This document shows, piece after piece, positions 4,489 through 26,400 of a stretch of DNA of 64,000 bases. Within the stretch, counting starts at the first letter, position 1, and each line of letters starts with the position of its first letter. The stretch comes from Ostreococcus lucimarinus. Taxonomy: Eukaryota. The stretch lies in assembly GCA_000092065.1 (NCBI GenBank), contig CP000594.1. One strand, given 5' to 3'. The notes under the pieces were generated by a model. The model had not been told where the DNA came from, ran no database searches, and was given only the letters and a program-made list of their open reading frames with translations. A program made the translations under genes and the position numbers.

Positions 4489-4583
4489 TTTGAGTTGCGG
4501 CACCCCAACATGATAAAACCGCACATCGACGTCGATGTACCACATGTAAGATTTCTCCAGAACCAATCGTGTGAGTGAAGTGG

Positions 4584-5081: not shown

Positions 5082-5258
5082 TTGTCCTGGTCACCTATCT
5101 ATCCCTAAGAAAATATAGTTGCCAAAAGTGCTCCTCTTGCGGTTTGCAGTCACATTCGAGAGATCATAGGTGCTCGTGTTGCTGCGTGGGGTGCAAGGTC
5201 TGGGATGTAGATATCGAACCGCCTGATTTCACACCTGGACGTTCGTGATCCGACGAGA

Positions 5259-5449: not shown

Positions 5450-5657
5450 ATCCAAACCATGGTCTTTTTGGTGTCTTGTTGAGTCTTCATATTGCAAATG
5501 TACGAATCACAAAATTAGTATGAACACCAGACGACCGCCGGCGCGAGCTCCGTCTCCCCCGTTTACCCATTGTCCTTCAGCCACTCGAAGCACCCGTCGC
5601 GGTCAATTTCCCAATAGACGCCATTCTCGTCCCTAGCTTGCCTCAGGTGGTCCTCTT

Positions 5658-5841
5658 AATACACCAAAAAGTAAATGCAATTATGGTGTTTCATTATTCC
5701 ATACGAGTACCCCAGAACGACGAGTCGTGACCCATACGGTAAAAATATCACGTCCCGCCGGTCCGGTCCCCATAGTATATAGAATTTATACAATTCAGCC
5801 CGCGTCATTACGGGGGTACAGTAATCTATGTGTCCGACATT
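5658..5841 (+). repeat. Intergenic module R1, copy a
   Basis: CCAAAAAGTAAATGCA...TTTCATTATTCCATACGAGTAC...GACGAGTCGTGACCCATACGGTAAAAATATCACGTCCCGCCGGTCCGGTCCCCATAGTATA...GTACAGTAATCT. It recurs at 19862-20125 (same orientation) and 36231-36410 (inverted), with a partial copy at 51131-51177. Confidence 0.7.
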
Positions 5842-5868: not shown

Positions 5869-5889
5869 TCCCCGGTGTCCCGCGCGCGC

Positions 5890-8800
5890 ATGCGTTGGCG
5901 CCGTCGACACTCGTCGACGCCCCGGCCCGCGGTCGTTCGCGTCCACACGGTTCAAGTAGTGCCCTTGGACGACGAACGTGCGCTTGTGCACCCTTGCGCG
6001 GATGAAGTGCGTTTCCATCGTGCGTCGCCGCCGTTCGGTCCTTTAAGGGCGACCGTAGCGCAACCGGGCGATCTCCGTGCGGACGGCGCGATGCCGGCGT
6101 ACGCATCGCAAGGAGTGCACACCGGGGGCACTGCGCCATTCGCGACGTACCGTGCAGCACAACACGCGTTTGCAACGCCAGACGGCATGCATTGGCGCGG
6201 TGGACGCAGCGTTTCATTGAAAATTGCGCGCAGCACTAGTGGGCAAAGCGGCTCGTTGGCACCCCAACGGGTCTTAAACACAATACTTGTTTTGTTCGGA
6301 TACTCGCCCAGGGATCTAGACACACGTGAGGGTAGTCGAAGGGCTAGCGTCCGGTGCCAAAAGAACATGCTCTTTGCTACGGCCACGTGGATGCTGCTAT
6401 TGCTCACGTCGTTTGTCGATGGGGCAATAGTAGACCGCGACGCTTTGAAAGTTGCAGTGGACAACTGTTTGGCGGCAAATGCCACTGGTAACTGCGATTG
6501 TAGCAGTGACTCTGTGGACTGCGGTACCGCTGGAAGTCTTCCCATCTCGCAGTGGGATACGAGCCGCGTGAACGATATGAATAGACTATTCAGCAACCAG
6601 GGTTCATTTAACGCGAATATCTCCGCGTGGGACGTGAGCGGCGTGACGGACATGACTCGAATGTTCGAGGGCGCTAATAGTTTCGCTCAGGACATCAGCT
6701 CGTGGAACGTGGTGAACGTCACGAGCATGGACACTATGTTCTATCGCGCGGATGCGTTCAACGCGCCCATCGGCAGTTGGAACACAGACGGCGTGACAAA
6801 CATGTTTCAGATGTTCCACTCAGCACATTTGTTCGATCAACCGATCGGAAGCTGGAACACGGAACGGGTGACGACCATGCAGTGTATGTTCATGTATGCG
6901 CGTGAATTCAATCAGGATATCAGCTCCTGGAACACGGCCAACGTGGTAAATATGTGGGATATGTTTTATAGTGCGGATGCGTTCAACCAGAACATTGGGT
7001 CATGGAACACAGAGGAGGTGACGGATATGAGGTACATGTTTTATAGTGCGGATGCGTTCAACCAGAACATTGGGTCATGGAACACAGAGAAGGTGACGGA
7101 TCTGAGCGGAATGTTTCAGGGCGCAGCGGCGTTCAACCAGGACATTGGCTCATGGAACACAGAGGAGGTGACAGACATGAGCGGAATGTTTCAGGGCGCA
7201 GCGGCGTTCAACCAGGACATTGGTTCATGGACGACGACGTCGGTGAAGAACATGGAGAGCATGTTCGAGGATGCGACGGCGTTCAACCAGAACATTAGCT
7301 CCTGGAACGTCAGTGCCGTCACAGACTTCGATCGGATGTTCTACACAGCGACCGCCTTCAACAAAGGCATAATCACCACGAAAACGACATGGACTGGCGC
7401 CACCGGCGCGTCCGCGACAGACATGTTCTCCGCCGCCACGGCGTGGCTGCAGAGGTATGAGTACACGACGAATCCCAGCGGAAGCGTCGTGAATGGTCCC
7501 GCGTCGGCTTGGAGTGTGAAGAAGTGTTCGTCCAATCAGTACGTTTTGAGCAACACATGCAAGGCGTGTGCCTCTGGCAAATTTCGCAGTGCTGGTGACG
7601 ACCCTGATGGCTCCAATACGGCGTGTACGTACGCGTCGCCGTTTGCTTCAAATACCCAGCTGAAAGACACGATCGAGTCTTCGTACTGCTTGGGAGGCAG
7701 CGACGCCACGGGCGCGAATTGCACGGACGGCAAGGGTATGTATATAGCGCAGTGGGATACGAGCTTGATCACGGATATGAATCACTTGTTCTACAACAAA
7801 ATTTCATTCGACGCCAATATCAGCACGTGGAACACGGCGAAAGTGACAAAAATGGATAGCATGTTTTCTCAAGCACGTGCATTTAACCAGAGGATTAATG
7901 AATGGAATACATCGAGCGTGGTGACAATGGAAGCTATGTTCCGCTACGCCGAGTCCTTTGACCAGCCCATTGGTGAGTGGAATACCGGAAGAGTCACCAA
8001 TATGAAAGACATGTTTTCGCAGGCGTCTGAATTCAATCAGAATATCGGTAATTGGGATACATCGAGTGTGACGACGATGGATACTATGTTTCGCTACACC
8101 GAGTCCTTTAACCAGCCCATTAGTGAGTGGAATACCGGAAGAGTCACCAATATGAAAGACATGTTTTCGCATGCGTACGCATTCAATCATTCAATCGGTG
8201 ACTGGAACACGGGTGCCGTGGAGAATATGGAGCTTATGTTCCAAAATACCGGCGTTTTCAACCAGGACATCAGCAGTTGGAACACGGCGGCGGTGACTCA
8301 GATGGACTCAATGTTTTACGGTGCTTCAGCCTTCAATTATGACATCACTGGTTGGAGTTCAGCAAGCCTTACGTCGTCGACGGACATGTTTCTCTCCGCG
8401 ACGGCTTGGCTGGCGAGGTACAAGAACACCGCCTCCCCAGGTAGCAAAAATGGGCCATCGTCGAACTGGCTCGGTCCCGGTCCGTTCACGACCAAGTCGG
8501 CGTTGGAGACCGCTACATGGAACTGCTTGGCGGGGAGCGCCGATGCCGATGGCAACTGCGACTGTACGACCGTCGATTGTGGCGCGGCGGTGTATGAATC
8601 GATTTCGAACTGGAACACGAGTTTGATCACGGACATGACCGGTTTGTTTGAAGGTAAGTCTTCATTCAACGCGAATATCGGCGGATGGAACACGGGGAGC
8701 GTCACAAACATGCACCAGATGTTTAACGGCGCGACTGCTTTCAACCAAGACATCGGTTCTTGGGATGTCTCGGATGTAGCGGACATGTATCAAATGTTCG

Positions 8801-11800
8801 GTAGCGCGTCCTCGTTCAATCAAAACATTGGGTCGTGGAACACAGGCAGTGTGACGGATATGAGCGGTATGTTCATGAATGCATCTGCGTTTAACCAGCC
8901 CGTTGGTGACTGGAACACAGGCAGCGTCGTGGATATGAGCGGCATGTTTGAGAGCGTGTCTGCGTTTAACCAGCCCATTGGTGAGTGGAATACCGGAAGA
9001 GTCACCAATATGAAAGAAATGTTTTCGCAGGCGTCTGAATTCAATCAGAATATCGGTAATTGGGATACATCGAGTGTGACGACGATGGATACTATGTTTC
9101 GCTACACCGAGTCCTTTAACCAGCCCATTAGTGAGTGGAATACCGGAAGAGTCACCAATATGAAAGACATGTTTTCGCATGCGTACGCATTCAATCATTC
9201 AATCGGTGACTGGAACACGGGTGCCGTGGAGAATATGGAGCTTATGTTCCAAAATACCGGCGTTTTCAACCAGGACATCAGCAGTTGGAACACGGCGGCG
9301 GTGACTCAGATGGACTCAATGTTTTACGGTGCTTCAGCCTTCAATTATGACATCACTGGTTGGAGTTCAGCAAGCCTTACGTCGTCGGCGAGCATGTTTC
9401 TCGACGCGCCGGCTTGGCTGGCGAGGTACAAGAACACCGTCGCCTCTGGTAGCAAAAATGGGCCATCGTCGAACTGGCTCGGTCCCGGTCCGTTCACGAC
9501 CAAGTCGGCGTTGGAGACCGCTACATGGAACTGCTTGGCGGGGAGCGCCGATGCCGATGGCAACTGCGACTGTACGACCGTCGATTGTGGCGCGGCGGTG
9601 TATGAATCGATTTCGAACTGGAACACGAGTTTGATCACGGACATGACCGGTTTGTTTGAAGGTAAGTCTTCATTCAACGCGAATATCGGCGGATGGAACA
9701 CGGGGAGCGTCACAAACATGCACCAGATGTTTAACGGCGCGACTGCTTTCAACCAAGACATCGGTTCTTGGGATGTCTCGGATGTAGCGGACATGTATCA
9801 AATGTTCGGTAGCGCGTCGTCGTTCAATCAAAACATTGGGTCGTGGAACACAGGCAGTGTGACGGATATGAGCGGTATGTTCATGAATGCATCTGCGTTT
9901 AACCAGCCCGTTGGTGACTGGAACACAGGCAGCGTCGTGGATATGAGCGGCATGTTTGAGAGCGTGTCTGCGTTTAACCAGCCCATTGGTGAGTGGAACA
10001 CAGGTAGCGTGGCGGATATGAACGGTATGTTCAGGAGCGCATCCGCGTTTAACGAGCCCGTTGGTGCATGGAACACAGGCAGCGTGACGGATATGAGCGG
10101 CATGTTTGAGAGCGTGTCTGCGTTTAACCAGCCCATTGGTGAGTGGAACACAGGTAGCGTGGCGGATATGAACGGTATGTTCAGGAGCGCATCCGCGTTT
10201 AACCAGCCGATTGGTGAGTGGGCCACAGGAAGCGTGGCGGATATGAGCGGCATGTTTGAGAGTGCATCCGCGTTTAACCAGCCGATTGGTGAGTGGGACA
10301 CAGACAGCGTGACGGATATGAGCAGCATGTTTGAGAGCGCGTCTGAATTCAATTATAACATCACTGATTGGAGTTCAGCTAGTCTCACGACGGACATGTT
10401 TCTCGATGCGACAGCTTGGCTGGGAAGATTTGCACGCAAAGATGGCGAAGACACCACTGATGGCCCACCATCCAAGTGGGGCGAACCGTGTGGCAATGAG
10501 TGGTACGATGCGACCTTTGAGGAGAAGTGTGAGCCAAGAGTGAACGGGATTGAAGTGAAAGGATGCAATTCTACGTGCGGGATAAAAGACAACTGGCGGT
10601 GCGACAATTTCGACTTGCTACGCCCCCCCGGTGATGACTTAGATAGCTACAATTGTACGTGCGACAACCCGGCGGGCACGTACGCATCGCCTGATCTTGA
10701 TTGTGCTCGCACAGATTGCATTTACGGCGAGCGGTGTCTCGCTAACGGCCTAGGCTGTGCGCCCGGTGCCGGTGGAAACGCATGCGACCGGTGTTTGACG
10801 GCCGCTGATATTGCCGAGCTTCCACTCAACGAACGAAGTCTCAGCAAGAATGGCTATTACAAGACTGGGCAGATGTGCACGGCTTGTCCAGAGACATCGG
10901 CTGGTCAACTTTTCGCTGCGGCTGCGGTTGTCGTCGTCCTCGCTTTTTGTGGTTTCAAAGCCTCTCAATTGATGGGCGCTCAAGCGACGAACAATTTGAA
11001 GAAAATTGTCGAGTCGCTGCAGTTCTTCTCTCTTTCGCTCAGTATGAGTATCAAGTGGCCTGGACCCGTACTCAATCTCGGTAAATATTTGGAAGCTTTC
11101 ACGTTCAGTATTGAGTTTCTACGACCCGAATGCGTCGCTACGGGGCTGAATTGGCTCAATATATTTTTGTCCTCAGTGTTTTTCGTTCCCGCTCTCATCT
11201 TCATAATCATCGTCGTGAACAATAGACGGGCGAAGCACCGTTACAAAACAACGGTGCGCGCGATCGACAGTGAACGACACGAGGATGGCGAAACAGTCTA
11301 CTGGATCAAGAAACCAGGTTTCTTGTGGGGTACGCGGAGAGCTTACGAGTCCAAGGGTGGAGATAAGATTGTTCGCGAGTTGCAGCGCCAGTATCGGTTT
11401 CGAGCCGCGCTTCGATCTTTCGGCGTACTGTCGCTGACCGTCCTATACCTTCCCATCGTGCGTATGTGCCTTCAGTCATACGATTGCATAAAGATAGACG
11501 GCGTGGATGGGCTTCGATTGGAGCATGACATAGATATCCTCTGTGAAAGCGAAGGGCACGTGATCATCCAGGCCGCCGCCGCGGTGATGTTGGCCATTGT
11601 CGGTATCGGCATGCCAATTTACGTCATAATGCAAGTTCGTAAGATCCGTTTGAGCGGTAAACTGGATGATCCACAGACTATCGACTCGTATGGTCCGTTC
11701 TACGACGTCTACCGGCGCGAGGAGCTCACACACGATCACAAATTGGAGATTGCGAGCATTCGACAAACCGCGGTCGAGTCGTCCTCATTTCGACGAGGCG

Positions 11801-12597
11801 AAGGCACGAGCGACGAACGTCCTTTCGATGCAGCAACTGATGATATTGCAGAAGAAATCGCAAATGAAGCCAGGGTCGATACGGAAGAAGATTCAAGCGA
11901 CGTTGATCGTGTTGACGTCGAGGACGATAGTGATACTCCACCACCTCAGAAAGTTGCATCCGGTCTCGGTAAGCTCGCTCGGGCGTTAACGATGACGAAG
12001 TCTGCTTTAGGCCGGACGACGTCAGCGAAAGCGCGCGAACGGGCACATCGAATGCACTGGAAGGACAGGTTCGCGCTTCACTACCTGGCCGTTGAACTAG
12101 TGCAGAAGAGTTGCGTCATTTTGACGACGTCTCCGCTAGTGGCCGAAACCGCGGTGAGCGGTTGGGCTCTGGTTGTCGTACACTGGTTTACCGGCGCCTT
12201 CGTCTACGTGTGTCAGCCTTGGCGCATCATGACGCTCGGCTTCGGCAAATACAAGGTGCGAAATTGCTTAAACAAAGTCGAGTCCTTGGCTGGATTTTTG
12301 CAGGGCGTGGGACCGTTCTTGGCGATGATCTTCCCTGTTCAGAGAAACGAGTTGGGCGAGGTGAAGCAAACTGTGACACTCTCAGCCATAACTGTCCTGC
12401 TGACCATCATAATCACCGGGCTGCTTTCTATTCGTATCATTGTTTTCGTCGGCGAACGCGTCGCCGTCAAACGAAAGAAGATGGACATTGACAAGGATCC
12501 CGAGAAATGCATGCAAAATGTTCACAAACAACTGGTCAAGCTCGCAACCAACAGAGCGATTGTGAGCATGTTGCTTTCAAGGCAGATTTCGACATAA
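5890..12597 (+). CDS. Large DUF285/BspA-like leucine-rich-repeat surface protein with Cys-rich stalk and C-terminal multi-pass TM region (~2,236 aa)
   Basis: 6.7-kb uninterrupted frame.
- It holds dozens of ~25-aa units of the type FN(Q/A)xIxxWNTxxVTxMxxMF.
- A hydrophobic segment MLFATATWMLLLLTSFVDG lies at 6367.
- A Cys-rich region lies at about 10.5-10.9 kb, followed by about 7-9 hydrophobic helices.
- The start is uncertain: an in-frame ATG at 5890 lies 22 nt after the 27-nt motif, and 6367 is the alternative. Confidence 0.85.
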   Translation: MRWRRRHSSTPRPAVVRVHTVQVVPLDDERALVHPCADEVRFHRASPPFGPLRATVAQPGDLRADGAMPAYASQGVHTGGTAPFATYRAAQHAFATPDGMHWRGGRSVSLKIARSTSGQSGSLAPQRVLNTILVLFGYSPRDLDTREGSRRASVRCQKNMLFATATWMLLLLTSFVDGAIVDRDALKVAVDNCLAANATGNCDCSSDSVDCGTAGSLPISQWDTSRVNDMNRLFSNQGSFNANISAWDVSGVTDMTRMFEGANSFAQDISSWNVVNVTSMDTMFYRADAFNAPIGSWNTDGVTNMFQMFHSAHLFDQPIGSWNTERVTTMQCMFMYAREFNQDISSWNTANVVNMWDMFYSADAFNQNIGSWNTEEVTDMRYMFYSADAFNQNIGSWNTEKVTDLSGMFQGAAAFNQDIGSWNTEEVTDMSGMFQGAAAFNQDIGSWTTTSVKNMESMFEDATAFNQNISSWNVSAVTDFDRMFYTATAFNKGIITTKTTWTGATGASATDMFSAATAWLQRYEYTTNPSGSVVNGPASAWSVKKCSSNQYVLSNTCKACASGKFRSAGDDPDGSNTACTYASPFASNTQLKDTIESSYCLGGSDATGANCTDGKGMYIAQWDTSLITDMNHLFYNKISFDANISTWNTAKVTKMDSMFSQARAFNQRINEWNTSSVVTMEAMFRYAESFDQPIGEWNTGRVTNMKDMFSQASEFNQNIGNWDTSSVTTMDTMFRYTESFNQPISEWNTGRVTNMKDMFSHAYAFNHSIGDWNTGAVENMELMFQNTGVFNQDISSWNTAAVTQMDSMFYGASAFNYDITGWSSASLTSSTDMFLSATAWLARYKNTASPGSKNGPSSNWLGPGPFTTKSALETATWNCLAGSADADGNCDCTTVDCGAAVYESISNWNTSLITDMTGLFEGKSSFNANIGGWNTGSVTNMHQMFNGATAFNQDIGSWDVSDVADMYQMFGSASSFNQNIGSWNTGSVTDMSGMFMNASAFNQPVGDWNTGSVVDMSGMFESVSAFNQPIGEWNTGRVTNMKEMFSQASEFNQNIGNWDTSSVTTMDTMFRYTESFNQPISEWNTGRVTNMKDMFSHAYAFNHSIGDWNTGAVENMELMFQNTGVFNQDISSWNTAAVTQMDSMFYGASAFNYDITGWSSASLTSSASMFLDAPAWLARYKNTVASGSKNGPSSNWLGPGPFTTKSALETATWNCLAGSADADGNCDCTTVDCGAAVYESISNWNTSLITDMTGLFEGKSSFNANIGGWNTGSVTNMHQMFNGATAFNQDIGSWDVSDVADMYQMFGSASSFNQNIGSWNTGSVTDMSGMFMNASAFNQPVGDWNTGSVVDMSGMFESVSAFNQPIGEWNTGSVADMNGMFRSASAFNEPVGAWNTGSVTDMSGMFESVSAFNQPIGEWNTGSVADMNGMFRSASAFNQPIGEWATGSVADMSGMFESASAFNQPIGEWDTDSVTDMSSMFESASEFNYNITDWSSASLTTDMFLDATAWLGRFARKDGEDTTDGPPSKWGEPCGNEWYDATFEEKCEPRVNGIEVKGCNSTCGIKDNWRCDNFDLLRPPGDDLDSYNCTCDNPAGTYASPDLDCARTDCIYGERCLANGLGCAPGAGGNACDRCLTAADIAELPLNERSLSKNGYYKTGQMCTACPETSAGQLFAAAAVVVVLAFCGFKASQLMGAQATNNLKKIVESLQFFSLSLSMSIKWPGPVLNLGKYLEAFTFSIEFLRPECVATGLNWLNIFLSSVFFVPALIFIIIVVNNRRAKHRYKTTVRAIDSERHEDGETVYWIKKPGFLWGTRRAYESKGGDKIVRELQRQYRFRAALRSFGVLSLTVLYLPIVRMCLQSYDCIKIDGVDGLRLEHDIDILCESEGHVIIQAAAAVMLAIVGIGMPIYVIMQVRKIRLSGKLDDPQTIDSYGPFYDVYRREELTHDHKLEIASIRQTAVESSSFRRGEGTSDERPFDAATDDIAEEIANEARVDTEEDSSDVDRVDVEDDSDTPPPQKVASGLGKLARALTMTKSALGRTTSAKARERAHRMHWKDRFALHYLAVELVQKSCVILTTSPLVAETAVSGWALVVVHWFTGAFVYVCQPWRIMTLGFGKYKVRNCLNKVESLAGFLQGVGPFLAMIFPVQRNELGEVKQTVTLSAITVLLTIIITGLLSIRIIVFVGERVAVKRKKMDIDKDPEKCMQNVHKQLVKLATNRAIVSMLLSRQIST
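7963..9978 (+). repeat. Near-identical 2 x 1,008-bp in-frame tandem duplication inside the DUF285 gene
   Basis: The unit starts with CAGCCCATTGGTGAGTGGAATACCGGAAGAG at 7963 and 8971. Track ORFs repeat at exactly +1,008 bp (8321/9329, 8337/9345, 8190/9198). Confidence 0.95.
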
Positions 12598-14399: not shown

Positions 14400-14711
14400 T
14401 ATAGCGGTCGTCTACGAGGAATACACGCATAGTCTAAACATGACCATCCTGTTGGAGAAGGAGCTGAGTTTCCGCTTCGTTACGGATGAGATTGTCGCGA
14501 GGAGATGAGCCTTCAAATTCGGGGCGATGGCTCACAAATCAGGCAAGGGAAGACAGGTGCACGTGCAAACTCTCAGCGGAAAGAGTTCATCGTCTCGAAG
14601 ATCTCGGTGTTTGGTGAGACAAACTCGACACACAGCAGGAGCACTTCACTGCCTGAGTGTACAGAAGATGTAACTAGCCTGAAGCGTTCGACCGTTGAGA
14701 CCTCAAGTTTT

Positions 14712-14759
14712 GGTGCCCTCGCTTAAGATTTCTTCAGAATAGAATCTCTGAAAGCAAGG
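14712..14759. repeat. 48-bp 3'-flank module with a short hairpin (TTCAGA...TCTGAA)
   Basis: GGTGCCCTCGCTTAAGATTTCTTCAGAATAGAATCTCTGAAAGCAAGG recurs at 43111-43158 with a few substitutions. Both copies lie downstream of the stop of a large plus-strand gene. Confidence 0.5.
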
Positions 14760-15013
14760 GATGCTCAAAGCAGCAAAAATGACTTCCTACTACGGGCCAC
14801 ACAGGACGCCGAGCCCGATTTCTCTGTGCGTTCCGACCCCCCTTAACAGCGGACCCTTGGGTCTTAAGAAATTTCAACCTTTAAGGTTATAGGTTATATA
14901 GGTTATAGGTTTATTTATAAAGTTTACATGTGACGTTTTTTTTCAAAAATGGAAAAAAAAGTGACGGAGAGAAAGTTCCTCACAGGACCTCCAACCACTA
15001 AACCCATAACCGG

Positions 15014-15148
15014 TCACTCTTCCTCGCCCCGTTCTTTGATACACGTTCGCCCCACGACGGTTCGACCTGAAATTTTTTTCGGTTTGGCTTCGAACCCGAG
15101 CTTGGTCAGCGCGCGTCCGATGAGCATCTTGCTCACGGTGCAGCCGTT
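15014..15148 (-). pseudogene. C-terminal 44 codons plus stop of the second helicase-like gene family (fragment)
   Basis: The minus-strand reading is NGCTVSKMLIGRALTKLGFEAKPKKISGRTVVGRTCIKERGEEE*. Its first 37 nt match 3095-3131 (35 of 37). It abuts the left end of element copy A. Confidence 0.3.
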
Positions 15149-15261
15149 AAAAATATCAACTTTTTTGTTTCAGTTGGGGCACCCCAACATGATAAAACGC
15201 TCATCGACGTTGATGTACCGCATGTACGATTTCTTCAGAACCAATCGTTCGAGTGAAGTGG

Positions 15262-15759
15262 TCAAACCAAGCCACGCAACTCATCTACCGTAAATTGATA
15301 CTTGTCGAGACTGCGCTTCGAAGGCAGCGTGCCGCGCGCTCGAGCATTCTTGAGACACGTCTTACGCAGTATTCTTTTCGCGTGCTGCTTGTAATAATTG
15401 AGTTGTCTGTAGTTACCATCGCCGCCGTCCCGCTTCGGCGTATATTGAGCTCTGCTGTAGGCCAGACTCTCGTCCACGTTCTCGTGGCACGCGTGTTTCC
15501 GACTGCGTCCAGGAACTCGGGAGTTGAATACGCCGTCGCGCTTCTCTCTCATGTATGCACTTTTACGTTGACGGAGCTCTCCAGCTGGAATGTCCTTTTC
15601 GAGAACTCTCACGTCCGCGTCGCCAAACGTGAAGATTGGATGCCGTGCGTATTTATGCGAGGCAAGGCGCGCTCTGAGCGAACCTGTCGTCGATCCGATG
15701 TACGTTTTGTCACATTTCGCATTATCGCTAAACATTTCGTACACGCATCCCGACGGCAT
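15262..15759 (-). CDS. GIY-YIG family nuclease (165 aa), element-borne
   Basis: ATG ORF with GCVYEM / KTYIGST / R / E(MREKRDG) / N(FNSR) signature order. The C-terminal 60 aa are identical to the 4584-5081 copy. Confidence 0.85.
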   Translation of the reverse strand: MPSGCVYEMFSDNAKCDKTYIGSTTGSLRARLASHKYARHPIFTFGDADVRVLEKDIPAGELRQRKSAYMREKRDGVFNSRVPGRSRKHACHENVDESLAYSRAQYTPKRDGGDGNYRQLNYYKQHAKRILRKTCLKNARARGTLPSKRSLDKYQFTVDELRGLV

Positions 15760-15926
15760 TTGTCCTGGTTACCTGTCTATCCCTAAGAAAATATTGTTGT
15801 CAAAAGTCCTCCTGCTGCGGTTTGCAGTCGCATTCGAGAGACCGTATCGCTGCGTGGGCTGCAAGGTCTGGGATGTAGATATCGAACCGCCCGATTTCAC
15901 ACCTGGACGTTCGTGATCCGTCGAGA

Positions 15927-16117
15927 CCTGACGAAATGACGAACTTGTTTTGTCGTCCCGAAATTCGTCAGCCCGTCGTTCGGTCACACTTTGTGTGTAC
16001 CAATGATGAAAATGACGAAATGTTAAAATATTTTAATGTTTATTTTTATTTTAGATCTACGACAAGCAACAGTGTAGACCTTTATGAAAACAGTTCGTCA
16101 TTCGTCATTTCGTCAGG
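15927..16117. other. Iteron / inverted-repeat / AT-rich block between helicase and nuclease genes (candidate replication origin or bidirectional regulatory region)
   Basis: The heptamer TGACGAA occurs at 15929, 15937 and 16013, and its complement TTCGTCA at 15964, 16094, 16101 and 16109. An 18-bp inverted repeat brackets an AT-rich core (AATGATGAAAATGACGAAATGTTAAAATATTTTAATGTTTATTTTTATTTTAGATCT). Confidence 0.4.
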
Positions 16118-16182
16118 ATCCAAACCATGGTCTTTTCGGTGTCTTGTTGAGTCTTCATATTGCAAATGTACGAATCACAAAA

Positions 16183-18393
16183 TTAGTATGAACACCAGAC
16201 GACCGCCGGCGCGAGCTCCGTCTCCCCCGTGTACCCATTGTTCTTCAGCCACTCGAAGCACCCGTCGCGGTCAATTTCCCAATAGACGCCATTCTCGTCC
16301 CTACCTTGCCTCAGGTGGTCCTCGCGCATTGGGATCCTGTGGCCCTTTTCCTTCTTGAAGAAGTCCTTGAGCTTATTGCCGACCCTGGTCGCGCTATCTT
16401 GACCGCGCGTAGCCGCTGGCAACCACGTCTGGTATTCGATGAAGATGTCACTGTTGCGGATTTTATTTCCAACCCACTTCTCAGGGAATTCAACAGTGAC
16501 GCAATGCTCAAACCATCGAGTGAACTTGGGCATGCAGCCACGCTTCATTTCCGAATACGCGTCGGTCGTAGGTCTGTCTTTCACGTAGTCAAAAGTCGAT
16601 AGGTCGAGCCCCATGAGGTGGTCGTAGATCGCCCTCAAGTTCCTCAGATCCTTGATGTACACGTCGCGGAATTCCTTCAAGAATCCAGTCTGGTCGTTCA
16701 AGTGCGTGAGCAGTGGCTCCATAACGACGAACCGACGATCACTCATTTCCAGAAAAACGGGGTAGTCGTCGTTCGAGAAAAATAGGAACCCAACCAGATT
16801 CATGATGACGTACAGCTGCACGTGCTTCGGGTTGATTGTGAAACTCGTGTCCGTGAGCATCGATTTCAGCAACTTTCTATACATTTTCATGATGCACTCA
16901 TCTGCTTCGTTCAACGCGAGACACTTTTTGCCTTCAATCATGTTCGCATGCGTCCCAAATATGTCCTTTTTCGGATCAGCCGTCTCATGAAACGTCTTGC
17001 CCATGAGCGCATGAAGCAGGTGCAGGAAAGTGCCCTTGCCGGTACCTTGGACTCCTCGAAACACGAGCGACGTGATCGGCTTCTCTTCGGGTCTCTGGAA
17101 GAGACACGCGAACCAATTCAAAGCGTACTCGAGCGCATTTTCTGAACCGCCACATAGCACCAGGAGGAGCTCGAGGAAAGGCTTTACGTCGCCCTCTTTG
17201 CCCAGTTCACTGGGGATGCCTTCGACCGGATAGCCTCGCCACAGATTGTACGTCTTGTTGCTGCAGTTTTTCGGGACGACATCGAGGGTATCGTACACCC
17301 GTTTATTGTCGTCGTCGAGCCACTTTTCGATGAACCCGTTCTTCTTGCCTTTCCTCAAGACACCGTTCTCATCGACAAAGGAGAGTTCTCGATAGCGCCT
17401 CACCAAAGCGGCCTCGCTGAACTTGGTAATGTCCCCGGTGGTTCCATAACAGCTATCGTCGCAGAAGAGGTCCTTGGTTAAGATCTTTGCGACGTGCTTC
17501 TCGAACTCACGGCGGACCTCGATGTAGCCCGCAGACGTGCCCTCTTTGATTTCGTTCTGCTCCTTTTCGGTGATACCGGTCACCAAACACCCAACCTCAA
17601 AGCGAAACTGTCTGGGCTTGCAGTTGCCATGGTTTTTCACGGTGAGCACGCCGAGACCGACCTCGGCGACGTAAAAGTGATTCCCACCGCCCCTTCCATT
17701 GCCTTCGTGGAAGCCCCCACAGCAAGGACATTGGCCCACAGTGGTGCCTCGCTGTGGGCGACATTGGTCGCATTCAAAATCATACGATGTCGCTCCACTG
17801 AGCCAATGTATGCCCGTGAACCCCATTTCCTCGAGCAAAGGTGTCACAGATGCTTGCGTAAAGCTGCACTCCGTGTCCGCGCGTTCGACCTTGTGACCGA
17901 CTTTGCCATCAAGGAAACTGTACAAATCGTTGGGCATCGGTGGTAAATTGTTGATGTCGCCTCGGAGTAGCTCGTAGCCCGGGGCATCGGCACCGACCAC
18001 GTAGTTACCCGTCGTACGGATATCGACGAACCCTTCGATGCCCACCGTGCCTTTCCAATCGCCGAATCGTTCTTCGTCCCATGCGAAGTACGTGTGGTAC
18101 CCGCCTGATCGCGTTTTGACGATGTACGCGCCTTCCCCGCCAACCTTGCGCGTCAACATTTCTTCCGTCAGTTCAAACTCGCACTTGCCACCGTAACAAT
18201 CCCAGTCGATGACGAGGACACGGTTCGGTCGCCCTGTCAGCACGCCGTACATTTCTCCTGGGATGACTTTCTGCGTATTCTGTTCATAGTTTGCTTCATC
18301 GAGGAACCCTCTGCCGCATGTTGGCTCCTTGTTCTGGTCGAGTGGGATCAGATGCATGCCGTTCGTAAATTCTCTGGCGTCCATATATATCAC
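16183..18393 (-). CDS. PrimPol (AEP primase) / Zn-ribbon / D5-like SF3 helicase fusion protein, 736 aa
   Basis: Intact ATG ORF.
- AEP motifs: VIDWD, SGGYHTYF, DIRTTGNYVVG.
- Cys cluster: CDQCRPQRGTTVGQCPCCGGFHEG.
- Walker A is GVQGTGKGT, Walker B is LALNEAD and motif C is FFSND.
- A second copy at 44501-46711 differs at 13 of 736 aa. Confidence 0.9.
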   Translation of the reverse strand: MIYMDAREFTNGMHLIPLDQNKEPTCGRGFLDEANYEQNTQKVIPGEMYGVLTGRPNRVLVIDWDCYGGKCEFELTEEMLTRKVGGEGAYIVKTRSGGYHTYFAWDEERFGDWKGTVGIEGFVDIRTTGNYVVGADAPGYELLRGDINNLPPMPNDLYSFLDGKVGHKVERADTECSFTQASVTPLLEEMGFTGIHWLSGATSYDFECDQCRPQRGTTVGQCPCCGGFHEGNGRGGGNHFYVAEVGLGVLTVKNHGNCKPRQFRFEVGCLVTGITEKEQNEIKEGTSAGYIEVRREFEKHVAKILTKDLFCDDSCYGTTGDITKFSEAALVRRYRELSFVDENGVLRKGKKNGFIEKWLDDDNKRVYDTLDVVPKNCSNKTYNLWRGYPVEGIPSELGKEGDVKPFLELLLVLCGGSENALEYALNWFACLFQRPEEKPITSLVFRGVQGTGKGTFLHLLHALMGKTFHETADPKKDIFGTHANMIEGKKCLALNEADECIMKMYRKLLKSMLTDTSFTINPKHVQLYVIMNLVGFLFFSNDDYPVFLEMSDRRFVVMEPLLTHLNDQTGFLKEFRDVYIKDLRNLRAIYDHLMGLDLSTFDYVKDRPTTDAYSEMKRGCMPKFTRWFEHCVTVEFPEKWVGNKIRNSDIFIEYQTWLPAATRGQDSATRVGNKLKDFFKKEKGHRIPMREDHLRQGRDENGVYWEIDRDGCFEWLKNNGYTGETELAPAVVWCSY

Positions 18394-18695
18394 ATAAGAA
18401 AAGAATTCTTTAAGCCGTGTTTTTCCTGGTCACATCGGCGCGATGACTGATTTTCAAGTTTTTCAACAGCCTGGAAAAGCACGCCAGCGCGCCCCACTGG
18501 TCAACGTTTTGCCACTTTTTCGACGAGATCGGGGTACTGCAAAGCACACGGCGAAGACCCGAGAGATCAGCAGATCGACGAACTCCGCAGTGAGCTCAGT
18601 GACATCGTGTCAAGACTGGAGGCGGTGGAGAGCGCCTAATCATCGTTTTTCTATATCGCGCCATTCGTGGACAACAAAATATACGTCCACATATA

Positions 18696-19753: not shown

Positions 19754-19780
<27 letters not shown>
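19754..19780 (-). promoter_or_regulatory. Conserved 27-nt 5' motif (reverse-strand copy)
   Basis: CGCTAAACCCTAGCAAAAATCGAGTTT is the exact reverse complement of the 27-mer at 5842 and 36494. The following leader resembles that of the 36586 gene up to the ATG. Confidence 0.6.
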
Positions 19781-19786
<6 letters not shown>

Positions 19787-19835
19787 TTGTCGATTTTTAA
19801 CACGTTTACAGTGGAACCTCTGCGGTTTTTGACGC

Positions 19836-19861
19836 CTAAACCCTAATTTCTAAACCCTAAT
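19836..19861. repeat. Two interstitial plant-type telomere-like units (CTAAACCCTAA x2)
   Basis: CTAAACCCTAATTTCTAAACCCTAAT lies directly adjacent to module R1 copy b. Confidence 0.6.
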
Positions 19862-20125
19862 GTGTAAATACGAGTACGACGTTTCATTAACCCATACGAG
19901 TACCCCCGAACGACGAGTCGTGACTCATACGGTAAAAATATCACGTCCCGCCGGTCCGGTCCCCATATACTATGGAATTTATGCTATTCAGCCCGCGCAA
20001 ACAGTCGGGTAGATTACTGTACAGTAATCTACCCGTATCTTACTGTACAGTAATCTGTGCGCGGAATCAGTAATCTGTACCCGGAATGACGCGGGATGTG
20101 GCGTAATCTATACCCGACATCCCGT
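19862..20125 (+). repeat. Intergenic module R1, copy b, with an expanded right part containing a 30-bp perfect palindrome
   Basis: The core matches 5690-5841. The right part holds four GTAATCT-containing units. CGGGTAGATTACTGTACAGTAATCTACCCG at 20006-20035 equals its own reverse complement. Confidence 0.65.
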
Positions 20126-20437: not shown

Positions 20438-23400
20438 TCAACGGCTTGATTCCAAGGTCGAGCCGTAATCATACGCTCGCGAGCCTACGAACACCGCATC
20501 GCACTCGTTTATTGGCGCGCGTCGCGACTTACGACGTACAATCGCCACAAACGCAACAAAGGTAAACATCGCAAGGTACAGAGTTAATGTGAAGGGTCGA
20601 GGCGCCCCCAATCTGGCTCTCGACTGTTGCACGGCGTTACATTCGCACAGTTCCAATGCCTTGCTTCGTTGCTCGGCATTTTTCCAGTTACGCGTGAAGC
20701 TGACATTAAAGTTTGCGACTCCACGAAACATTTCGTCGACGTTCGCGTCAGCGCTCAATACCCACGAATTCAGATCTTGATTGAAACTTTTGGCGAAAGC
20801 AAACATCCGATGAAAGCTCTTGACGTTGGAGACGTTCCAATCGCTTAGGTTTTGATTGAAATTTCGATTGTACGCGAACATTTCTGACATGTCCGTAGCA
20901 GACGCCGTGTTCCACGCACTGATGATGGTCGCCGCCGTCGATCCAACGCCATTCAGACTATCGTAATGTGTTTGAAATAGACTTCTGAAATTCCTCACCT
21001 CACTTGTATCCACCATGTTTAGAGGCCCAAATCTACAACAGTAGCTGTACTTCGAGAAATTCGACCCCATGCAGTTACTCCGAGCTGACTCTTGGCTTCG
21101 GCAGGAGCGTATCACTTGGTATAAACTCGAACGATCGCCACGAAGTGGTGATAAACCTTGCGCCGTACCAGAATACGCAAAGAGATCTATAAACTGTTGA
21201 TGATCGCTTCGGTGAGTATTGACTTGTTTTTCCTTGATATTTTCGGCAAATGACGGCGAACGATAGCTTGGATTCAGAAAGTAGGTGGAATGGAACATCC
21301 CGTAAGCGGTCGTAACCGAGGAAACATCCCACGTCCACTTTCGCAAATCGCGCGAGAATGCGCGCGCGCCATTGAACATGTATTGCATGTTCTGAACTTT
21401 TTTCACGTTCCATGACGACAAATCCTGATCAAAACTTGTCGCATATTGAAACATTTTCACCATCGTCCCGACTTGCGCGACATTCCAAGATCCGATTGAC
21501 GCGTTGAAGTCTCTCCGATTTTGGAAAAGTTCATTCATGTTCGTTACCCTACTGACATCCCACGTCTCCATGGTCCCAAACTGTAAGTCTCGACACATAC
21601 CTCCGACGGGATCGACTTCCAAACATTTATCTATGATATCATCGATGTTGTCGTTATCGATGTGCTCCATAACTTTGGTTTCAGCGATTTTCGGTTTCCA
21701 ATTGCACGGGGGGCCATGTCTCATGTTCGACTTGCTGATTGAGACGAGTTTGAAATCGAACGAGCTCCGTCTGCCTCTTGCATAGTGACTGAACCATTTG
21801 GTAACGCGAACTTCGTCCTTCAATGCGTACTTCACCTTCCACGCGGCGGCGTTCAGGAACATGTCACCCACGATTGGCTGCAGAACGGTCGATTGCGACG
21901 TTGCGTGCTGGGCGAGACAAACGTACTCGCCTCGAACGGCAGCTTCGCCGCGGCCCCAATTTGTAATGTCGGCATCAAACATCCAAGCGTCGTCAAACAT
22001 TTTATAAAAGTCTGTGACTGATCTCACGTTCCAATCCCCCAAGTCTCCGTTAAATTTATAGGCGTTGGAAAACATCTGGTTCATGTCTTCAACCTGGGCG
22101 ACGTTCCAAAGTTTCAAAGAGCCCCGGAATCGACGCGCGCCGTAGAACATGCGGAACATACTCGTGACTGAAGCAACGTTCCAGTTTTCGATATTGCCAT
22201 TGAAGTCGCGTGCGCCCGAGAAGGCTTCAGACATATCGAACACACCTGAAGTATTCCAGGTTGACATCGCGCCATACTTGGAGTCGACGCAAGCGCCATC
22301 AGTGGGATGTGTCTCCAAACATTTGCCGACGGCGTACAAGAAATTACCTTGATGTACTTCGGCGAAGGTTGATGAATTCGTTGAGTTCTTGCTCGTTGTA
22401 GGCACGGTGCACTTAGCTGGCGAAGCACGATTTGGTTTCTTCGCCAACCCAACACAGTCGACATCACCATATATGGCGTGGCGACCATATTTCCCGTCTT
22501 TGTCGCGCCCCCACTTGTAGCCAATTTTCGTATTGTATTCCAGGCAAGTGCGCGGCTTGCAGGTCCACTTCGACACGGGACCAGAGAGAGACCACGTTCT
22601 TCTACGTTCGTGGCCTTCGCGCGTGCATGCCTCAAGCCAGGCCGTCGCAAGACCAAACATATTGGCACTCCCCAACCTGTCCAGACTCGCGGAATCCCAC
22701 TTGGAGATATCTTGCGCAAACTTCGACGCGCCGTAAAACATCCCCTCCATATTGTACACGTTGCGTACGTCCCAATTGCCAATGTCTTGATTGAAACTCG
22801 AAGCGCCTTGAAACATGCGCAACATAAATGTTACGGAACTCACATCCCAAGCAGATATATCGCCATCGAACTGGTCTCTGCCCTTAAATGCCTCGCGCAT
22901 GTCGGTGACTCGGCTTACGTCCCAGCCAGACATACATCCGTGTCTAAATCCAGAGCAGTCTCCGTACTTTGGGTCTTCACTCAAGCATTCTTCAATCGCA
23001 TCATAGAAGACAGCATTTTCAATGTTTACGTGCTTTCGTTTCCAAACAATCGGTGGTCCATCACTTTTCCCTCCGACGGCGAGAGGATCGCGATAAAACT
23101 CCATTTGAAACTCCGTGATGCCGTCGAACATCTTCGTCGAAACTTCCAACGAAGCCGTCGACCAAGAAGTGACATCAGGAAAGTCTGGGACCACTACTCT
23201 GGAAAACATCTCGCGCATGTTTTTCACTTTTCGCACATTCCAGTGCGATATCTCTGATGGGATCTTTCCAAAGCGAACGCCCTTGAACATCATTTCCATA
23301 CTTGTAGCCGAACTCGTGTCCCATGAAGCAAATCCTGAAGGCAAGCGGGTAGTGCGATATCGCGATGAAAACATGCTCCTAAAGTTCGTTATACCAATGG

Positions 23401-26400
23401 TGCGCATGTTGGATACATCGCAGGTCGTCGACACGGGTGAATTCAAACCAGAAAACATGGAATCAGCATCGACGTTTGATCCGAAACTCCATGAGATGTT
23501 GACATCCGTGCACTCAGAACCCTTCATCATTGCCTTGATATCATTGGCAGAGTCTAGTTTCCACGCGCTCGCTTGACGAAGAATGGGTGGTTTTGAGAAA
23601 GCAAACGCGGATTGCATCTTCTGAACTCGTTTAGGATCCCATTTGCCAAGACCGTCGATGGCGTCGTGACCAATCCGAGCAAATGCAAGCTCCATGCTCT
23701 TCACATTCCTCACGTCCCAAGAACCAATATCGCCGATGCGTCCTTGATTTGTCATTTTGAAGAATATTCCGTCCATGTTGGTGACCGAGGAGACATCCCA
23801 ATGTTTGAACATATTGTGCCAATCACGCCCCAGACCACTGAAGGTGAACCGCATGCTCCGCACGCTACTTACATTCCACGCACCCAAGTTACCAAAAGTC
23901 GCTCCCGGTAGAATGACCACAGTGCGTGGAACATCTAATCTGAAACGCGTTTCGGAATGCGAAGATGCCTTCCATTCTCCCGTATCATTGAAATACCGTT
24001 CTCCATATCTGAAAATGTGGTAATTATAGCGCTGCATGAACATTGCATCCATGTTCACGACTGAACTCGTGTTCCACTGTGACAAGTCGCCCACGTCGCC
24101 TTCAAAATCCTCAAACATCGCACCCATGTCCGTCACGGAGCTCACGTCCCATCTCGACAGGTCACGTGAAAAGTTGGGCGCGTCCTTGTATGCAGCACCA
24201 AACTCTCCAGGGCTTGCTTGAAAGAATTTCCATCGCAAACATACGTAGCCGAACGTTCGGTAATGTCCCGGAAACGCGGCTTGGTCAAACTGAAAGTGGT
24301 TAACAGTACCAATTTTGAACGCGTACGACATGTCGGTTACTCGCGAGACATCCCATTCTGACATCGGCCCGTATCTCAATTCGCATGTCGTTAAATTCTT
24401 TCTGCATGCGATGATCGCGGTATAGAAATCATCATCTGTACGAGTCAAGTTGAGTGGTTTGGATACCAGAGCGCTCAAAAGTCGGCGTCCAAGTGGAAGC
24501 CGAACAGGATCGTCGATACTTTTACCCAAACGTGCGCTGACGCTCATCGCCGGCGACTTGGCGGAGGTGAGCTCCTCTTCGAGCCTTCGCAGCTTGGCCC
24601 GCAAACCTACAAGCCCTCGGTTCCTCGGATTGCGAGCCTCGATCCGCGCAATTTTTGTGCGGAGCTTTGTCATTTCCGGCGTCGGGCTCGGTGGCGGCGG
24701 GCTCGGACTTGTCGACGGCGTGTCGCCGAAGAGCTCCTCTTCGAGCCTTCGCAGCTTGGCCCGCAAACCTACAAGCCCTCGGTTCCTCGGATTGCGAGCC
24801 TCGATCCGCGCAATTTTTGTGCGAAGCTTTGTCATTTCCGGCGTCGGGCTCGGTGGCGGCGGGCTCGGACTTGTCGACGGCGTGTCGCCGAAGAGCTCCT
24901 CTTCGAGCCTTCGCAGCTTGGCCCGCAAACCTACAAGCCCTCGGTTCCTCGGATTGCGAGCCTCGATCCGCGCAATTTTTGTGCGGAGGTTTGTCATTTC
25001 CGGCGTCGGGCTCGGTGGCGGCGGGCTCGGACTTGGTGTAGTCGTCAGATAATCGATCGATGAGCTCGGCGATTGACTCGGACTCGGCGAGCTCTTCTCT
25101 TCGTCAGCGTCCTCCTCTTCGTCAGCATGTTCGACTTCGTCTTTGTCTGCCTCTTCGTCCTCCTCTTCGTCTGCATTGTAAGGCGATGGACTCGGACTCG
25201 GCGAGCTCTTCTCTTCGTCAGCGTCCTCCTCTTCGTCAGCATGTTCGACTTCGTCTTTGTCTGCCTCTTCGTCCTCCTCTTCGTCTGCATTGTAAGGCGA
25301 TGGACTCGGACTCGGCGAGCTCTTCTCTTCGTCAGCGTCCTCCTCTTCGTCAGCATCTTCGACTTCGTCTTTGTCTGCCTCTTCGTCCTCCTCTTCATCT
25401 GCATTGTAAGGCGATGGACTCGGACTCGGCGAGCTCTTCTCTTCGTCAGCGTCCTCCTCTTCGTCAGCATGTTCGACTTCGTCTTTGTCTGCCTCTTCGT
25501 CCTCCTCTTCGTCAGCATTGTAAGGCGATGGACTCGGACTCGGCGAGCTCTTCTCTTCGTCAGCGTCCTCCTCTTCGTCAGCATGTTCGACTTCGTCTTT
25601 GTCTACCTCTTCGTCCTCCTCTTCGTCAGCATTGTAAGGCGATGGACTCGGACTCGGCGCACTTGCTTGTGCGTCGATACCTGTATATTCTGGTTCATCG
25701 GATGGCGTGTAGTTCTGAAATGGTTCATACGAATCTGTGGTTGTATTCGTTTTACTCGACGCAGCACGATGACCGATGGTATCCGCGTCGACCTCAAAAC
25801 TAAAATTGCCATTAAGACGGAAACTGGACTCCTTAGAGTCAAGAATTGCTTGGTCGTCGTCACTCACGGATACTTTATCGAGAATTTTGAGCGAATGTAT
25901 CGTTGGTAGCGGAGCACCTAGTACACTGCGGCGTACGTCATGAAGACGATCGCGAGTGGACAGCAAACGACGGTGACTTGGGCTCGTGGCAGTACACATC
26001 TTGAACAGTTTCTCGTCGTGCAATGACGAATATAGTACCTTTTTGCTTCGGGCGAGCACATCAAAGCTTGAAGTAAGTAGCGCGTCTAAATGACTCGGTA
26101 TACCAACGCCCCTCACGGACGTTAACAATTCAAACGAAGAAGCTCGTGGCGGTAAACTTTTCAGCTTTTCACGCCTCGCCCACGGGAGAGGCTTGGCAAG
26201 GTCTACCATTTCTTCCTCACCGTCTTCATTTTCGCATTTCCCATCGTCGTCGTAGACGCACATTTGACAGGTTGTCTCGTTGATGCTTGCTACATACTTG
26301 AGCGGTAGTTCGGGCAGTACAATATTCTGTAAAAAGCCAGTCACGTTTCCCACGATACTCAAACCCTGCTCTGAATCGGGATATTTCCCCCAGAAATTGA

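Follow-up and report, generated by a model that had tools for sequence, protein, structure and literature searches.

Selectively maintained primase-helicase cassettes in the genome of Ostreococcus lucimarinus as probable derivatives of a polinton-like virus lineage

A 64,000-nucleotide stretch of the Ostreococcus lucimarinus genome (NCBI GenBank assembly GCA_000092065.1, contig CP000594.1; hereafter called the window) carries two full-length copies and two fragments of a two-gene cassette, which encodes a primase-helicase fusion protein (PrimPol) and a GIY-YIG nuclease. These cassettes are probably capsid-less derivatives of an endogenous lineage of polinton-like viruses (PLVs) that lives in Ostreococcus genomes. 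On this reading they are not PLVs as defined, because genes for the capsid, the penton and the packaging ATPase are absent, but they are derived from one. Each cassette is then a familiar kind of element in reduced form, consisting of a replication module, a candidate origin and a homing-type nuclease gene. The main point of interest is that cassette copies are still held intact by selection.

The cassette and its primase-helicase gene

The limits of the copies and fragments were set by self-BLAST together with base-level inspection of the boundaries. The core repeat of copy A (15148-18558, minus strand) comprises the PrimPol gene, an inverted-repeat element and the GIY-YIG gene, and it matches positions 43461-46876 of copy B with 97.0% identity over 3427 nucleotides. 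The core repeat of copy B, also on the minus strand, has outer limits of 43389 and 47116 when delimited against the two fragments. Fragment 1 (1667-3095), which is inverted (plus strand), holds the upstream region and approximately the first 340 PrimPol codons, and is 95.8% identical to copy B 45681-47116. Fragment 2 (4335-5657, minus strand) is approximately 95% identical to copy B 43389-44643. It holds the last ~47 PrimPol codons, an inverted-repeat element (5259-5449), an intact GIY-YIG open reading frame (ORF) of 165 amino acids (4587-5081) and, at its 3' end, a 67-nucleotide tandem duplication. The cassette genes are all on the minus strand, and in the full copies the PrimPol ORF is followed by the GIY-YIG gene. 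An earlier note, made from the letters of the window, had described two full copies and two fragments that share near-identical DNA, and self-BLAST confirms this arrangement at about 97% identity. Because the counterpart of fragment 2 is a full-length copy in strain L007 (comparison loci carry L numbers throughout), the fragment seen here is a deletion derivative of that copy.

The PrimPol ORF is intact in both full copies, at positions 16183-18393 in copy A and 44501-46711 in copy B (736 amino acids and minus strand in each case), and intact 736-amino-acid ORFs are also present in L004-L007. Exactly as claimed in the earlier note, the proteins of copies A and B differ at 13 residues and have all of the quoted motifs at the same positions. 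These motifs include VIDWD at residue 61, SGGYHTYF at residue 96, and the superfamily 3 (SF3) helicase motifs GVQGTGKGT, LALNEAD and FFSND. When the N-terminal 248 residues are used as a query, the Prim-Pol family PF09250 matches residues 10-151 with 38.4 bits against a cut-off of 22.8, and this family is also carried by homologues of the window protein. The helicase core matches PF19263 (DUF5906) at residues 445-554 (E = 2e-14), and 'DNA primase' families of PHROG match the fusion protein with E = 5e-31. The window protein is a fusion of an archaeo-eukaryotic primase (AEP) Prim-Pol domain, a Cys-rich zinc region and a D5-type SF3 helicase. This is the domain order of the D5-type primase-helicases of Nucleocytoviricota, virophages and plasmids, in which an AEP Prim-Pol is followed by a Cys cluster and then by an SF3 helicase that has Walker A, Walker B and motif C. 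Unlike those genes, the window gene occurs in several chromosomal copies in an alga that is free-living, has few full-length relatives (33-37% identity), and its product gives no D5_N match.

There is no exact match to the 736-amino-acid sequences, with either a GTG or an ATG start, in a collection of 15 billion proteins. Therefore, the PrimPol ORFs are apparently unannotated, having been missed or mis-modelled in the reference annotation. By contrast, the neighbouring small GIY-YIG ORF is an annotated NCBI/UniProt protein. Exact protein matches assign the window to O. lucimarinus strain CCE9901.

The ratio of non-synonymous to synonymous substitution rates (dN/dS) for PrimPol is between 0.10 and 0.25 in every pair of sequences, and is 0.13 for copy A versus copy B. 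The 41 differences between the PrimPol genes of these two copies divide into 27.5 synonymous and 13.5 non-synonymous changes, where the neutral expectation is approximately 9 and 32. Such low ratios exclude neutral decay, and PrimPol is therefore under purifying selection, even between copies within one genome.

Links to polinton-like viruses

Homology searches reveal four Ostreococcus-type PrimPol subfamilies, with 98, 84, 81 and 57% identity, and a handful of full-length relatives with 32-34% identity that reside on metagenome contigs of 10-21 kb. All of the subfamilies and the distant full-length relatives carry the Prim-Pol and DUF5906 domains. An exhaustive search yields 15,852 matching database representatives, most of which match the helicase half, and the full-length collinear relatives among them are few (33-37% identity).

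Two of the distant relatives provide the clearest view of a viral gene neighbourhood. At L002 and L003, a 33%-identical PrimPol gene is located beside a conserved pair of genes encoding proteins of ~330 and ~447 amino acids. An alignment of 24 members of the 447-amino-acid family preceded structure prediction with AlphaFold, and the resulting model has a predicted local distance difference test score (pLDDT) of 83 and a predicted template modelling score (pTM) of 0.85. The model is a double jelly roll that matches Vp54 of PBCV-1 (E = 1e-18) and the capsid proteins of an iridovirus and Sputnik, and it also matches a viral model with a template modelling (TM) score of 0.80 and E = 1e-35. This model confirms the 447-amino-acid protein of L002 and L003 as a double-jelly-roll major capsid protein. 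L002 also encodes a Dcm-type methylase and a GIY-YIG nuclease, and L002 and L003 are therefore PLV genomes or insertions.

The 81% subfamily, which is represented by L001, L009 and L039, brings the link to capsid genes much closer to the window. The L039 element is complete and forms a block of ~17 kb on a 949-kb contig. The gene order in this subfamily is two paralogous genes of 404 and 476 amino acids, PrimPol, a 308-amino-acid P-loop gene, a small Pro-rich gene, a 374-amino-acid gene, a capsid homologue, a lipase-like gene of 441 amino acids and a gene of 875 amino acids. The capsid homologue is located ~3 kb downstream of the PrimPol paralogue. The capsid profile matches ORFs of L009 and L039 (hmmsearch E = 2e-7 and 5e-9), and hhalign aligns the homologue over 231 collinear columns with a probability of 91% and E = 1e-6. 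An ORF at L001:15288-15779 was considered as the N-terminus of the capsid protein and was rejected (hhalign probability 0.7%), the signal being found in the next ORF and in the unbroken versions of L009 and L039.

Other genes in this block can be assigned only tentatively. The 308-amino-acid protein has a Walker A motif (KQSGKT) and a Walker B motif (VIIDD), matches the B204 packaging NTPase with E = 0.4 and a terminase family with E = 2e-3, and is tentatively considered a packaging-type ATPase. Its gene recurs in the capsid-bearing loci L038 and L002, and the 84% PrimPol paralogue is followed by the start of the same gene. The proteins of 404 and 476 amino acids exhibit the pattern R...K...(L)LRH...H-x7-Y, and one homologue weakly matches integrase families in PHROG; they are tentatively considered tyrosine recombinases. 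Pfam and PDB profile searches, made with single sequences and small profiles, gave nothing significant for the putative recombinases, ATPase or penton, and PHROG gave weak matches. A scan of IMG/VR returned one distant helicase only when patterns from close PrimPol relatives were used, and nothing when the 374-amino-acid protein was used.

Decayed and recombined members of the family are also found. L038 is a decaying PLV insertion that is syntenic with L002 and is located beside host genes of 60% GC (Xpo1, CwfJ) on a 317-kb contig, and its capsid gene is frameshifted. The helicase of L038 was examined as a possible close relative of the window protein and was rejected, as it belongs to a different DUF5906 lineage. 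On the 39-kb contig L035, degraded pieces of PrimPol and GIY-YIG genes (7840-8457, 10001-10442) lie among ankyrin-repeat, GmrSD_C and methylase-like ORFs. The PrimPol/GIY-YIG family thus exists in the form of heavily eroded relics as well. The PrimPol gene of L012, which represents the 57% subfamily, is a mosaic in which the first ~930 nucleotides are 96% identical to the 81% subfamily, the 3' element is of the same type, and the middle is highly divergent. This mosaic structure indicates recombination between subfamilies.

Genes for a primase-SF3 helicase, a stand-alone GIY-YIG nuclease, a lipase, a Dcm methylase and a tyrosine recombinase of the OLV11 type are recurrent in PLVs (PMC4642659; PMC12220804). 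Ostreococcus genomes hold one to two PLV or virophage capsid genes each (PMC10120064), and the capsid-bearing insertions found here agree with this number. The window copies resemble PLVs (PMC4642659; PMC10120064) in having a primase-SF3 helicase and a stand-alone GIY-YIG nuclease, in being low in GC relative to the host, and in being integrated in an algal nuclear genome. In addition, their relatives at 33-37% and 81-84% identity are linked to genes for a capsid protein, a candidate P-loop ATPase, a lipase-like protein, a methylase and a putative tyrosine recombinase. Unlike PLVs, which span 14-40 kb, the window copies measure 3.4-4.2 kb, lack both the three defining genes (major capsid, minor capsid and packaging ATPase) and terminal inverted repeats (TIRs), and occur as several intact copies within 47 kb.

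The absence of virion genes from the window was examined in several ways. The major capsid profile, whose target is found in relatives by structure (L002, L003) or by profile (L009, L039), finds nothing in the window. The window also has no homologue of either candidate penton, the ~330-amino-acid capsid neighbour of L002 and L003 and the 374-amino-acid protein of L001 and L039, or of the 308-amino-acid P-loop protein. When all ORFs of L039, L002, L003 and L038 were compared with the window by tblastn, the matches were PrimPol and GIY-YIG only. The earlier note had reported no capsid, ATPase or recombinase gene, and these profile and tblastn searches likewise find none. The kinship with the replication modules of PLVs and virophages that it had recognised also stands.

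Candidate origin, nuclease gene and cassette ends

Directly after the PrimPol stop codon lies an AT-rich noncoding element (15927-16117 in copy A, 44245-44435 in copy B) that is a candidate origin or terminator. It contains a perfect 17-19-nucleotide inverted repeat with iterated TGACGAA, whose arms are 157 nucleotides apart around a core of 64-71% AT. The inverted repeat is kept in all four subfamilies with a spacing of 155-157 nucleotides, and both arms change in parallel between subfamilies (TGACGAAATGACGAA versus TGATGAAGTGAYGAA). In L002, an inverted repeat of 33 nucleotides occupies the same position. The origins recognised by SF3 helicases, such as simian virus 40 (SV40) large T and papillomavirus E1, have inverted binding sites that flank an AT-rich stretch. 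The window element is similar in that it has inverted TGACGAA iterons and an AT-rich core, adjoins the helicase gene, and undergoes concerted changes in its arms, although the likeness is purely architectural. Judged against other SF3-helicase replicons, this inverted repeat is most likely an origin that serves as the helicase loading site.

The GIY-YIG gene of copy A (15262-15759, minus strand; XP_001421474.1) encodes an intact protein of 165 amino acids. The earlier note had placed such an ORF in both full copies, which is correct for copy A but not for copy B (43579-44075, minus strand, listed as a 269-amino-acid ORF at 43266-44075). There, the deletion of one nucleotide at codon 129 puts the C-terminal domain out of frame, and the other intact ORF of the window is the one in fragment 2. 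Most nuclease copies are intact, and two (copy B and L011) are frameshifted. PF01541 matches eight of the ten family members examined (best E = 6.5e-7), with the window protein itself below threshold. The GIY...YIG, Arg, Glu and Asn motifs are present in the family, and Y7, Y20-G22, R31, H35 and N79 are invariant in its alignment.

In an AlphaFold model of the nuclease, residues 1-80 form a beta-beta-alpha-alpha-beta-alpha domain and residues 118-165 a helical domain, both with good confidence, whereas the linker between them (81-117) is modelled with low confidence, and hence the layout of catalytic domain, linker and second domain proposed in the earlier note holds in the model. In a fold search, the best PDB match is the catalytic domain of I-TevI (1ln0_A, root-mean-square deviation 2.8 Å), followed by the GIY-YIG domains of UvrC and Slx1; the domain is short and the E-values are weak. 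A profile of the nuclease family finds no significant match among PDB sequences, and the likeness to I-TevI came from the fold search. No similarity was found between the C-terminal domain and the zinc finger or helix-turn-helix of I-TevI, NUMOD or other known DNA-binding modules. The nuclease dN/dS is 0.25-0.6 overall, wherein both structured domains are constrained (the C-terminal domain strongly) and the linker is nearly neutral. The PrimPol, SF3 helicase and GIY-YIG calls made earlier are thus supported by PF09250, by PF19263, by PF01541 in family members, and by the I-TevI fold match.

The nuclease gene is a separable insertion that is absent or differently placed in sister subfamilies. 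In the 81% subfamily it is absent downstream of PrimPol and homology resumes beyond it; homology to copy B stops at position 44247, in the outer arm of the inverted repeat. The nuclease-less site in L039 (~12430-12545) contains CCATGGTCACCGACTCGTGAAATCTGGGAGATCGAGCTCGACGTCCTG. In the 84% subfamily (L008, L010), a divergent member of the nuclease family is found upstream of PrimPol, and in L002 a GIY-YIG gene 51% identical to that of the window is located one gene away from PrimPol on the opposite strand. Such presence, absence and relocation is the behaviour of a free-standing homing endonuclease gene, and the homing-like character suggested in the earlier note is consistent with these changes among subfamilies.

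Stand-alone GIY-YIG genes are known in giant viruses and PLVs (PMC12220804). With these and the other free-standing homing genes, including I-TevI and the Seg genes of phage T4, the window nuclease shares its catalytic motifs and a predicted I-TevI-like fold. Its model also has a catalytic domain, a flexible linker and a small helical domain. Like homing genes, it is present, absent or relocated beside the same conserved neighbour and is occasionally inactivated, as in copy B and L011. Unlike I-TevI, its gene is not inside an intron and its C-terminal domain has no detectable zinc-finger or helix-turn-helix likeness; cleavage and homing are predicted activities. A direct repeat of the target motif, in diverged form, also lies on either side of the insertion, an arrangement atypical of homing genes.

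A metagenome scan produced 29 loci. When these are mapped on copy B and the window, the 5' limit of homology falls at any of five points and the 3' limit at any of three. No TIR or target-site duplication (TSD) was found at any candidate boundary of copy A or B by inverted- and direct-repeat searches and base-level alignments, and Pfam, PHROG and NCBIfam give no match to a transposase, integrase or PolB in or beside the copies. We therefore reject a DNA transposon or a Polinton/Maverick, as the copies are without TIRs, TSDs, fixed ends, a transposase, an rve integrase or PolB. The complete termini that the earlier note had hoped to recover do not emerge, since the ends vary across the 29 loci.

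The earlier note had also reported a sharp terminus and flanks that are unrelated at every locus. The string CAGGCCCAGGCGCGGCCGCAATGC is indeed found at both 4335 and 43389, but there is no single pair of ends. Beyond the copy B terminus, the segment 43388-43270 (minus strand) is homologous to the segment directly after PrimPol in a capsid-bearing element (L001 12430-12545) and is a remnant of a second PLV-type backbone. Because of this match, the terminus at 43389 is a junction of the cassette with another PLV backbone. The flanks are not colinear, but they are not entirely unrelated either. The 3' flanks of copies A and B share a GTGAAATC...CGTCCTG motif (14806-14824 and 43328-43346) and a repeat of ~80 nucleotides (14708-14759 and 43093-43170). 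The distal 3' flank of copy A (14708-14824, minus strand) accordingly holds a degenerate second version of the motif and a ~50-80-nucleotide repeat common to the copy B flank. L006 shares positions 47292-43093 with copy B and has different flanks, and beyond the copy B limits L006, L011, L017 and copy A still match each other.

The counterpart of copy A in strain L021 is 5'-truncated within a flank that is the same as that of the window. Considering this truncated copy and the full-length counterpart of fragment 2 in L007, the fragment 2 and copy A loci gain and lose sequence quickly. Some copies of the 98% type (L007, L025, L017) have a third PLV-derived gene upstream, which encodes a small membrane-anchored protein. 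The members of this family, which is absent from the window, have a membrane anchor conserved at the N-terminus, M.AYDS.ER...RPRTFTLTQLLVACVAV. Two members occur in each of the capsid-bearing PLV contigs L002 (923-1441, 3089-3412) and L038 (8615-9034, 12430-12727), and the family is also represented in L007 (~700-900), L017 (4433-5086) and L025 (~4740-4940).

Sequence exchange, rival explanations and significance

The divergence between copies A and B is a mosaic, with 0.6% in the 5' third of PrimPol and 3.1% in the 3' part. At orthologous loci of near-identical strains, the flanks are 99.9-100% identical whereas the elements differ by 1-2%. At L007 there are no mismatches among 1435 flank positions and 29 among 1322 element positions (Fisher p = 5e-10), and at L015 the corresponding values are 2/1666 and 20/1232 (p = 3e-6). 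The L007 haplotype recurs in L014, which is an independent assembly, and L023 is a mosaic of the two haplotypes. An assembly chimera is an unlikely cause of the contrast between flank and element, given that L007 and L014 are identical and come from different samples. A mutation bias resembling repeat-induced point mutation was rejected, as by inspection the private changes are not clearly C-to-T biased. The excess diversity of the elements may reflect either gene conversion between copies, plausibly provoked by the nuclease, or faster mutation of the elements. Whole and truncated copies also swap between near-identical strains.

The cassettes reside in a low-GC island that extends from position 1 to ~50.5 kb of the window (GC 0.49-0.54, versus 0.54-0.71 beyond) and has a fairly sharp edge near 50-51 kb. 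The island is packed with giant intron-less genes whose products have DUF285/BspA-type repeats and TSP1, PAN, tectonin and discoidin domains. Two giant ORFs with DUF285/BspA-like repeats, TSP1 and PAN are located at 5875-12597 (2240 amino acids) and 20438-35908 (5156 amino acids), and one with tectonin and discoidin domains at 36505-42996 (2163 amino acids). Long, near-perfect tandem repeats, up to 99% identical and with periods of ~114-162 nucleotides and ~1 kb, are found inside the giant DUF285 ORFs (7957-10423, 24569-25659). In other strains (L011, L016, L017, L023), too, PrimPol cassettes are flanked by giant genes that are homologous to these. A repeat of 160-300 nucleotides, which resembles a shared promoter or 5' untranslated region, is located upstream of the giant genes and of a 357-amino-acid ORF in both orientations (window 5656-5817, 19754-20029, 36229-36520; L039 4110-4403, 21734-22060). 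On L039, the 17-kb capsid-bearing element lies between copies of this repeat, and in the window one copy adjoins fragment 2 at position 5657. Just beyond copy B there is a Cys-rich, metallothionein-like ORF of 115 amino acids (…CCPKDCDACGPDKCACPDATTCKSCGCTSCACPSCECKNSCSKCIDNCCC; 47296-47643, minus strand), and a 141-nucleotide direct repeat (47181-47321 and 48868-49008, 90% identical) brackets a ferritin gene at 47685-48542.

If the cassettes are derived from a PLV lineage as we propose, their copies would spread neither by cut-and-paste nor by self-priming transposition. Rather, they would be spread, homogenised or diversified through recombination between PLV-derived sequences in the hypervariable low-GC island. 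Double-strand breaks, which the GIY-YIG nuclease would make at nuclease-less or related sites, are a probable stimulus of this recombination, and the neighbouring PrimPol gene may be co-converted during the repair. Because selection keeps PrimPol intact, the protein is presumably still used, perhaps in the presence of a full PLV or a prasinovirus as helper, or perhaps by the host. A semi-autonomous, capsid-less lifestyle is possible.

Several observations weigh against this proposal. No capsid-bearing version of the 98% subfamily was found among its ~25 loci, and because all of them share the two-gene layout, the PrimPol/GIY-YIG module may lead an independent existence. In the longer relatives, the recombinase, ATPase and penton genes are assigned tentatively, from motifs, synteny and weak profile matches. 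For the most part, the comparisons were made with metagenome contigs of unknown strain, where mis-assembly of repeats can occur. Gene conversion is a tentative reading, because 22 of the 29 variant sites occur in one haplotype only and are not shared with the five sampled paralogues; locally raised mutation is an alternative. Finally, the inverted repeat could simply be a bidirectional transcription terminator.

Four other explanations deserve consideration. In one, to which we give a small but real chance, the unit of PrimPol, inverted repeat and GIY-YIG gene is an active capsid-less 'homing replicon', a selfish module that escaped from a PLV and maintains itself in Ostreococcus. The nuclease would cut related PLV-derived sites, and repair of the cut would copy the unit into them. 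Variable ends, mosaic copies and excess diversity would all follow from this, and the unit might also replicate from its own origin when a helper virus infects. If such a replicon exists, it would drive structural turnover in the low-GC island and its giant surface-protein genes. Another explanation is the proposal of the earlier note, in which PrimPol-SF3 helicase and GIY-YIG genes alone form an undescribed class of autonomous eukaryotic mobile element that replicates itself, perhaps as an episome, and uses the nuclease for insertion or homing. Consistent with this are the same capsid-free two-gene unit at all ~25 loci of the 98% subfamily, the intact ORFs with a dN/dS of ~0.13 between copies of one genome, the conserved origin-like inverted repeat that adjoins the helicase gene, the occurrence of copies in at least four or five different flanking contexts, and the clusters of 601 and 898 near-identical metagenome members. 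However, clusters of this size are expected for any gene of an abundant alga, and there are no TIRs, TSDs or reproducible ends. Longer copies with capsid, ATPase or integrase genes, which the earlier note had named as evidence against its own proposal, are not seen for the 98% subfamily, but the sister subfamilies at 81-84% are embedded in capsid-bearing elements of PLV type. Moreover, copy B abuts a PLV backbone, some copies have a third PLV-derived gene upstream, and the nuclease gene is a separable insertion that does not belong integrally to the unit. The proposal of an undescribed, self-replicating transposon class is accordingly not borne out, and we consider it improbable.

Just as improbable, in our estimation, is domestication of the PLV replication and nuclease genes by the host, for example for defence against prasinoviruses or for DNA repair in the island, so that selection acts for the host. 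It is true that several copies are under purifying selection, that they sit in a low-GC island of giant surface-protein genes, and that endogenous PLVs and virophages can protect protists (PMC10945749; PMC12220804). Low-GC compartments of this kind have been linked to virus resistance and high transcription in Mamiellales (bioRxiv 10.1101/2025.04.21.649811; PMC5082852). Against this, many copies are truncated or frameshifted, their presence or absence differs between near-identical strains, several divergent subfamilies co-exist, and no one syntenic locus is conserved. Such behaviour is less fitting for a fixed host gene than for a selfish or viral sequence. The possibility we regard as most remote is that the copies are inert fragments of decayed viral insertions, multiplied by passive segmental duplication of the island. 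Duplications and rearrangements abound in this region, the same lineage includes decayed PLV insertions (the frameshifted capsid gene of L038, the fragments of L035), and fragments 1 and 2 and the copy B nuclease gene are damaged. Yet the excess of synonymous over non-synonymous differences between the PrimPol genes of copies A and B is the reverse of the neutral expectation, both 736-amino-acid ORFs are intact, as are those of L004-L007, and the flanks are not colinear duplicates.

Ostreococcus has the smallest genome of any free-living eukaryote. O. lucimarinus has been regarded as almost free of transposable elements (bioRxiv 10.1101/2025.04.21.649811) and as a carrier of only one or two PLV/virophage capsid genes (PMC10120064). 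In this setting, a PLV lineage would have left several intact copies of its replication gene, kept by selection and apparently unannotated, in a hypervariable low-GC island. This raises the question of whether PLV modules without capsid genes survive as selfish homing units or in the service of host defence, and whether a homing nuclease contributes to the rapid structural change of low-GC islands. The primase-helicase and the candidate origin are a potential cognate pair for study. The cassettes also serve as a warning that screens based on capsid genes undercount viral DNA in protist genomes.

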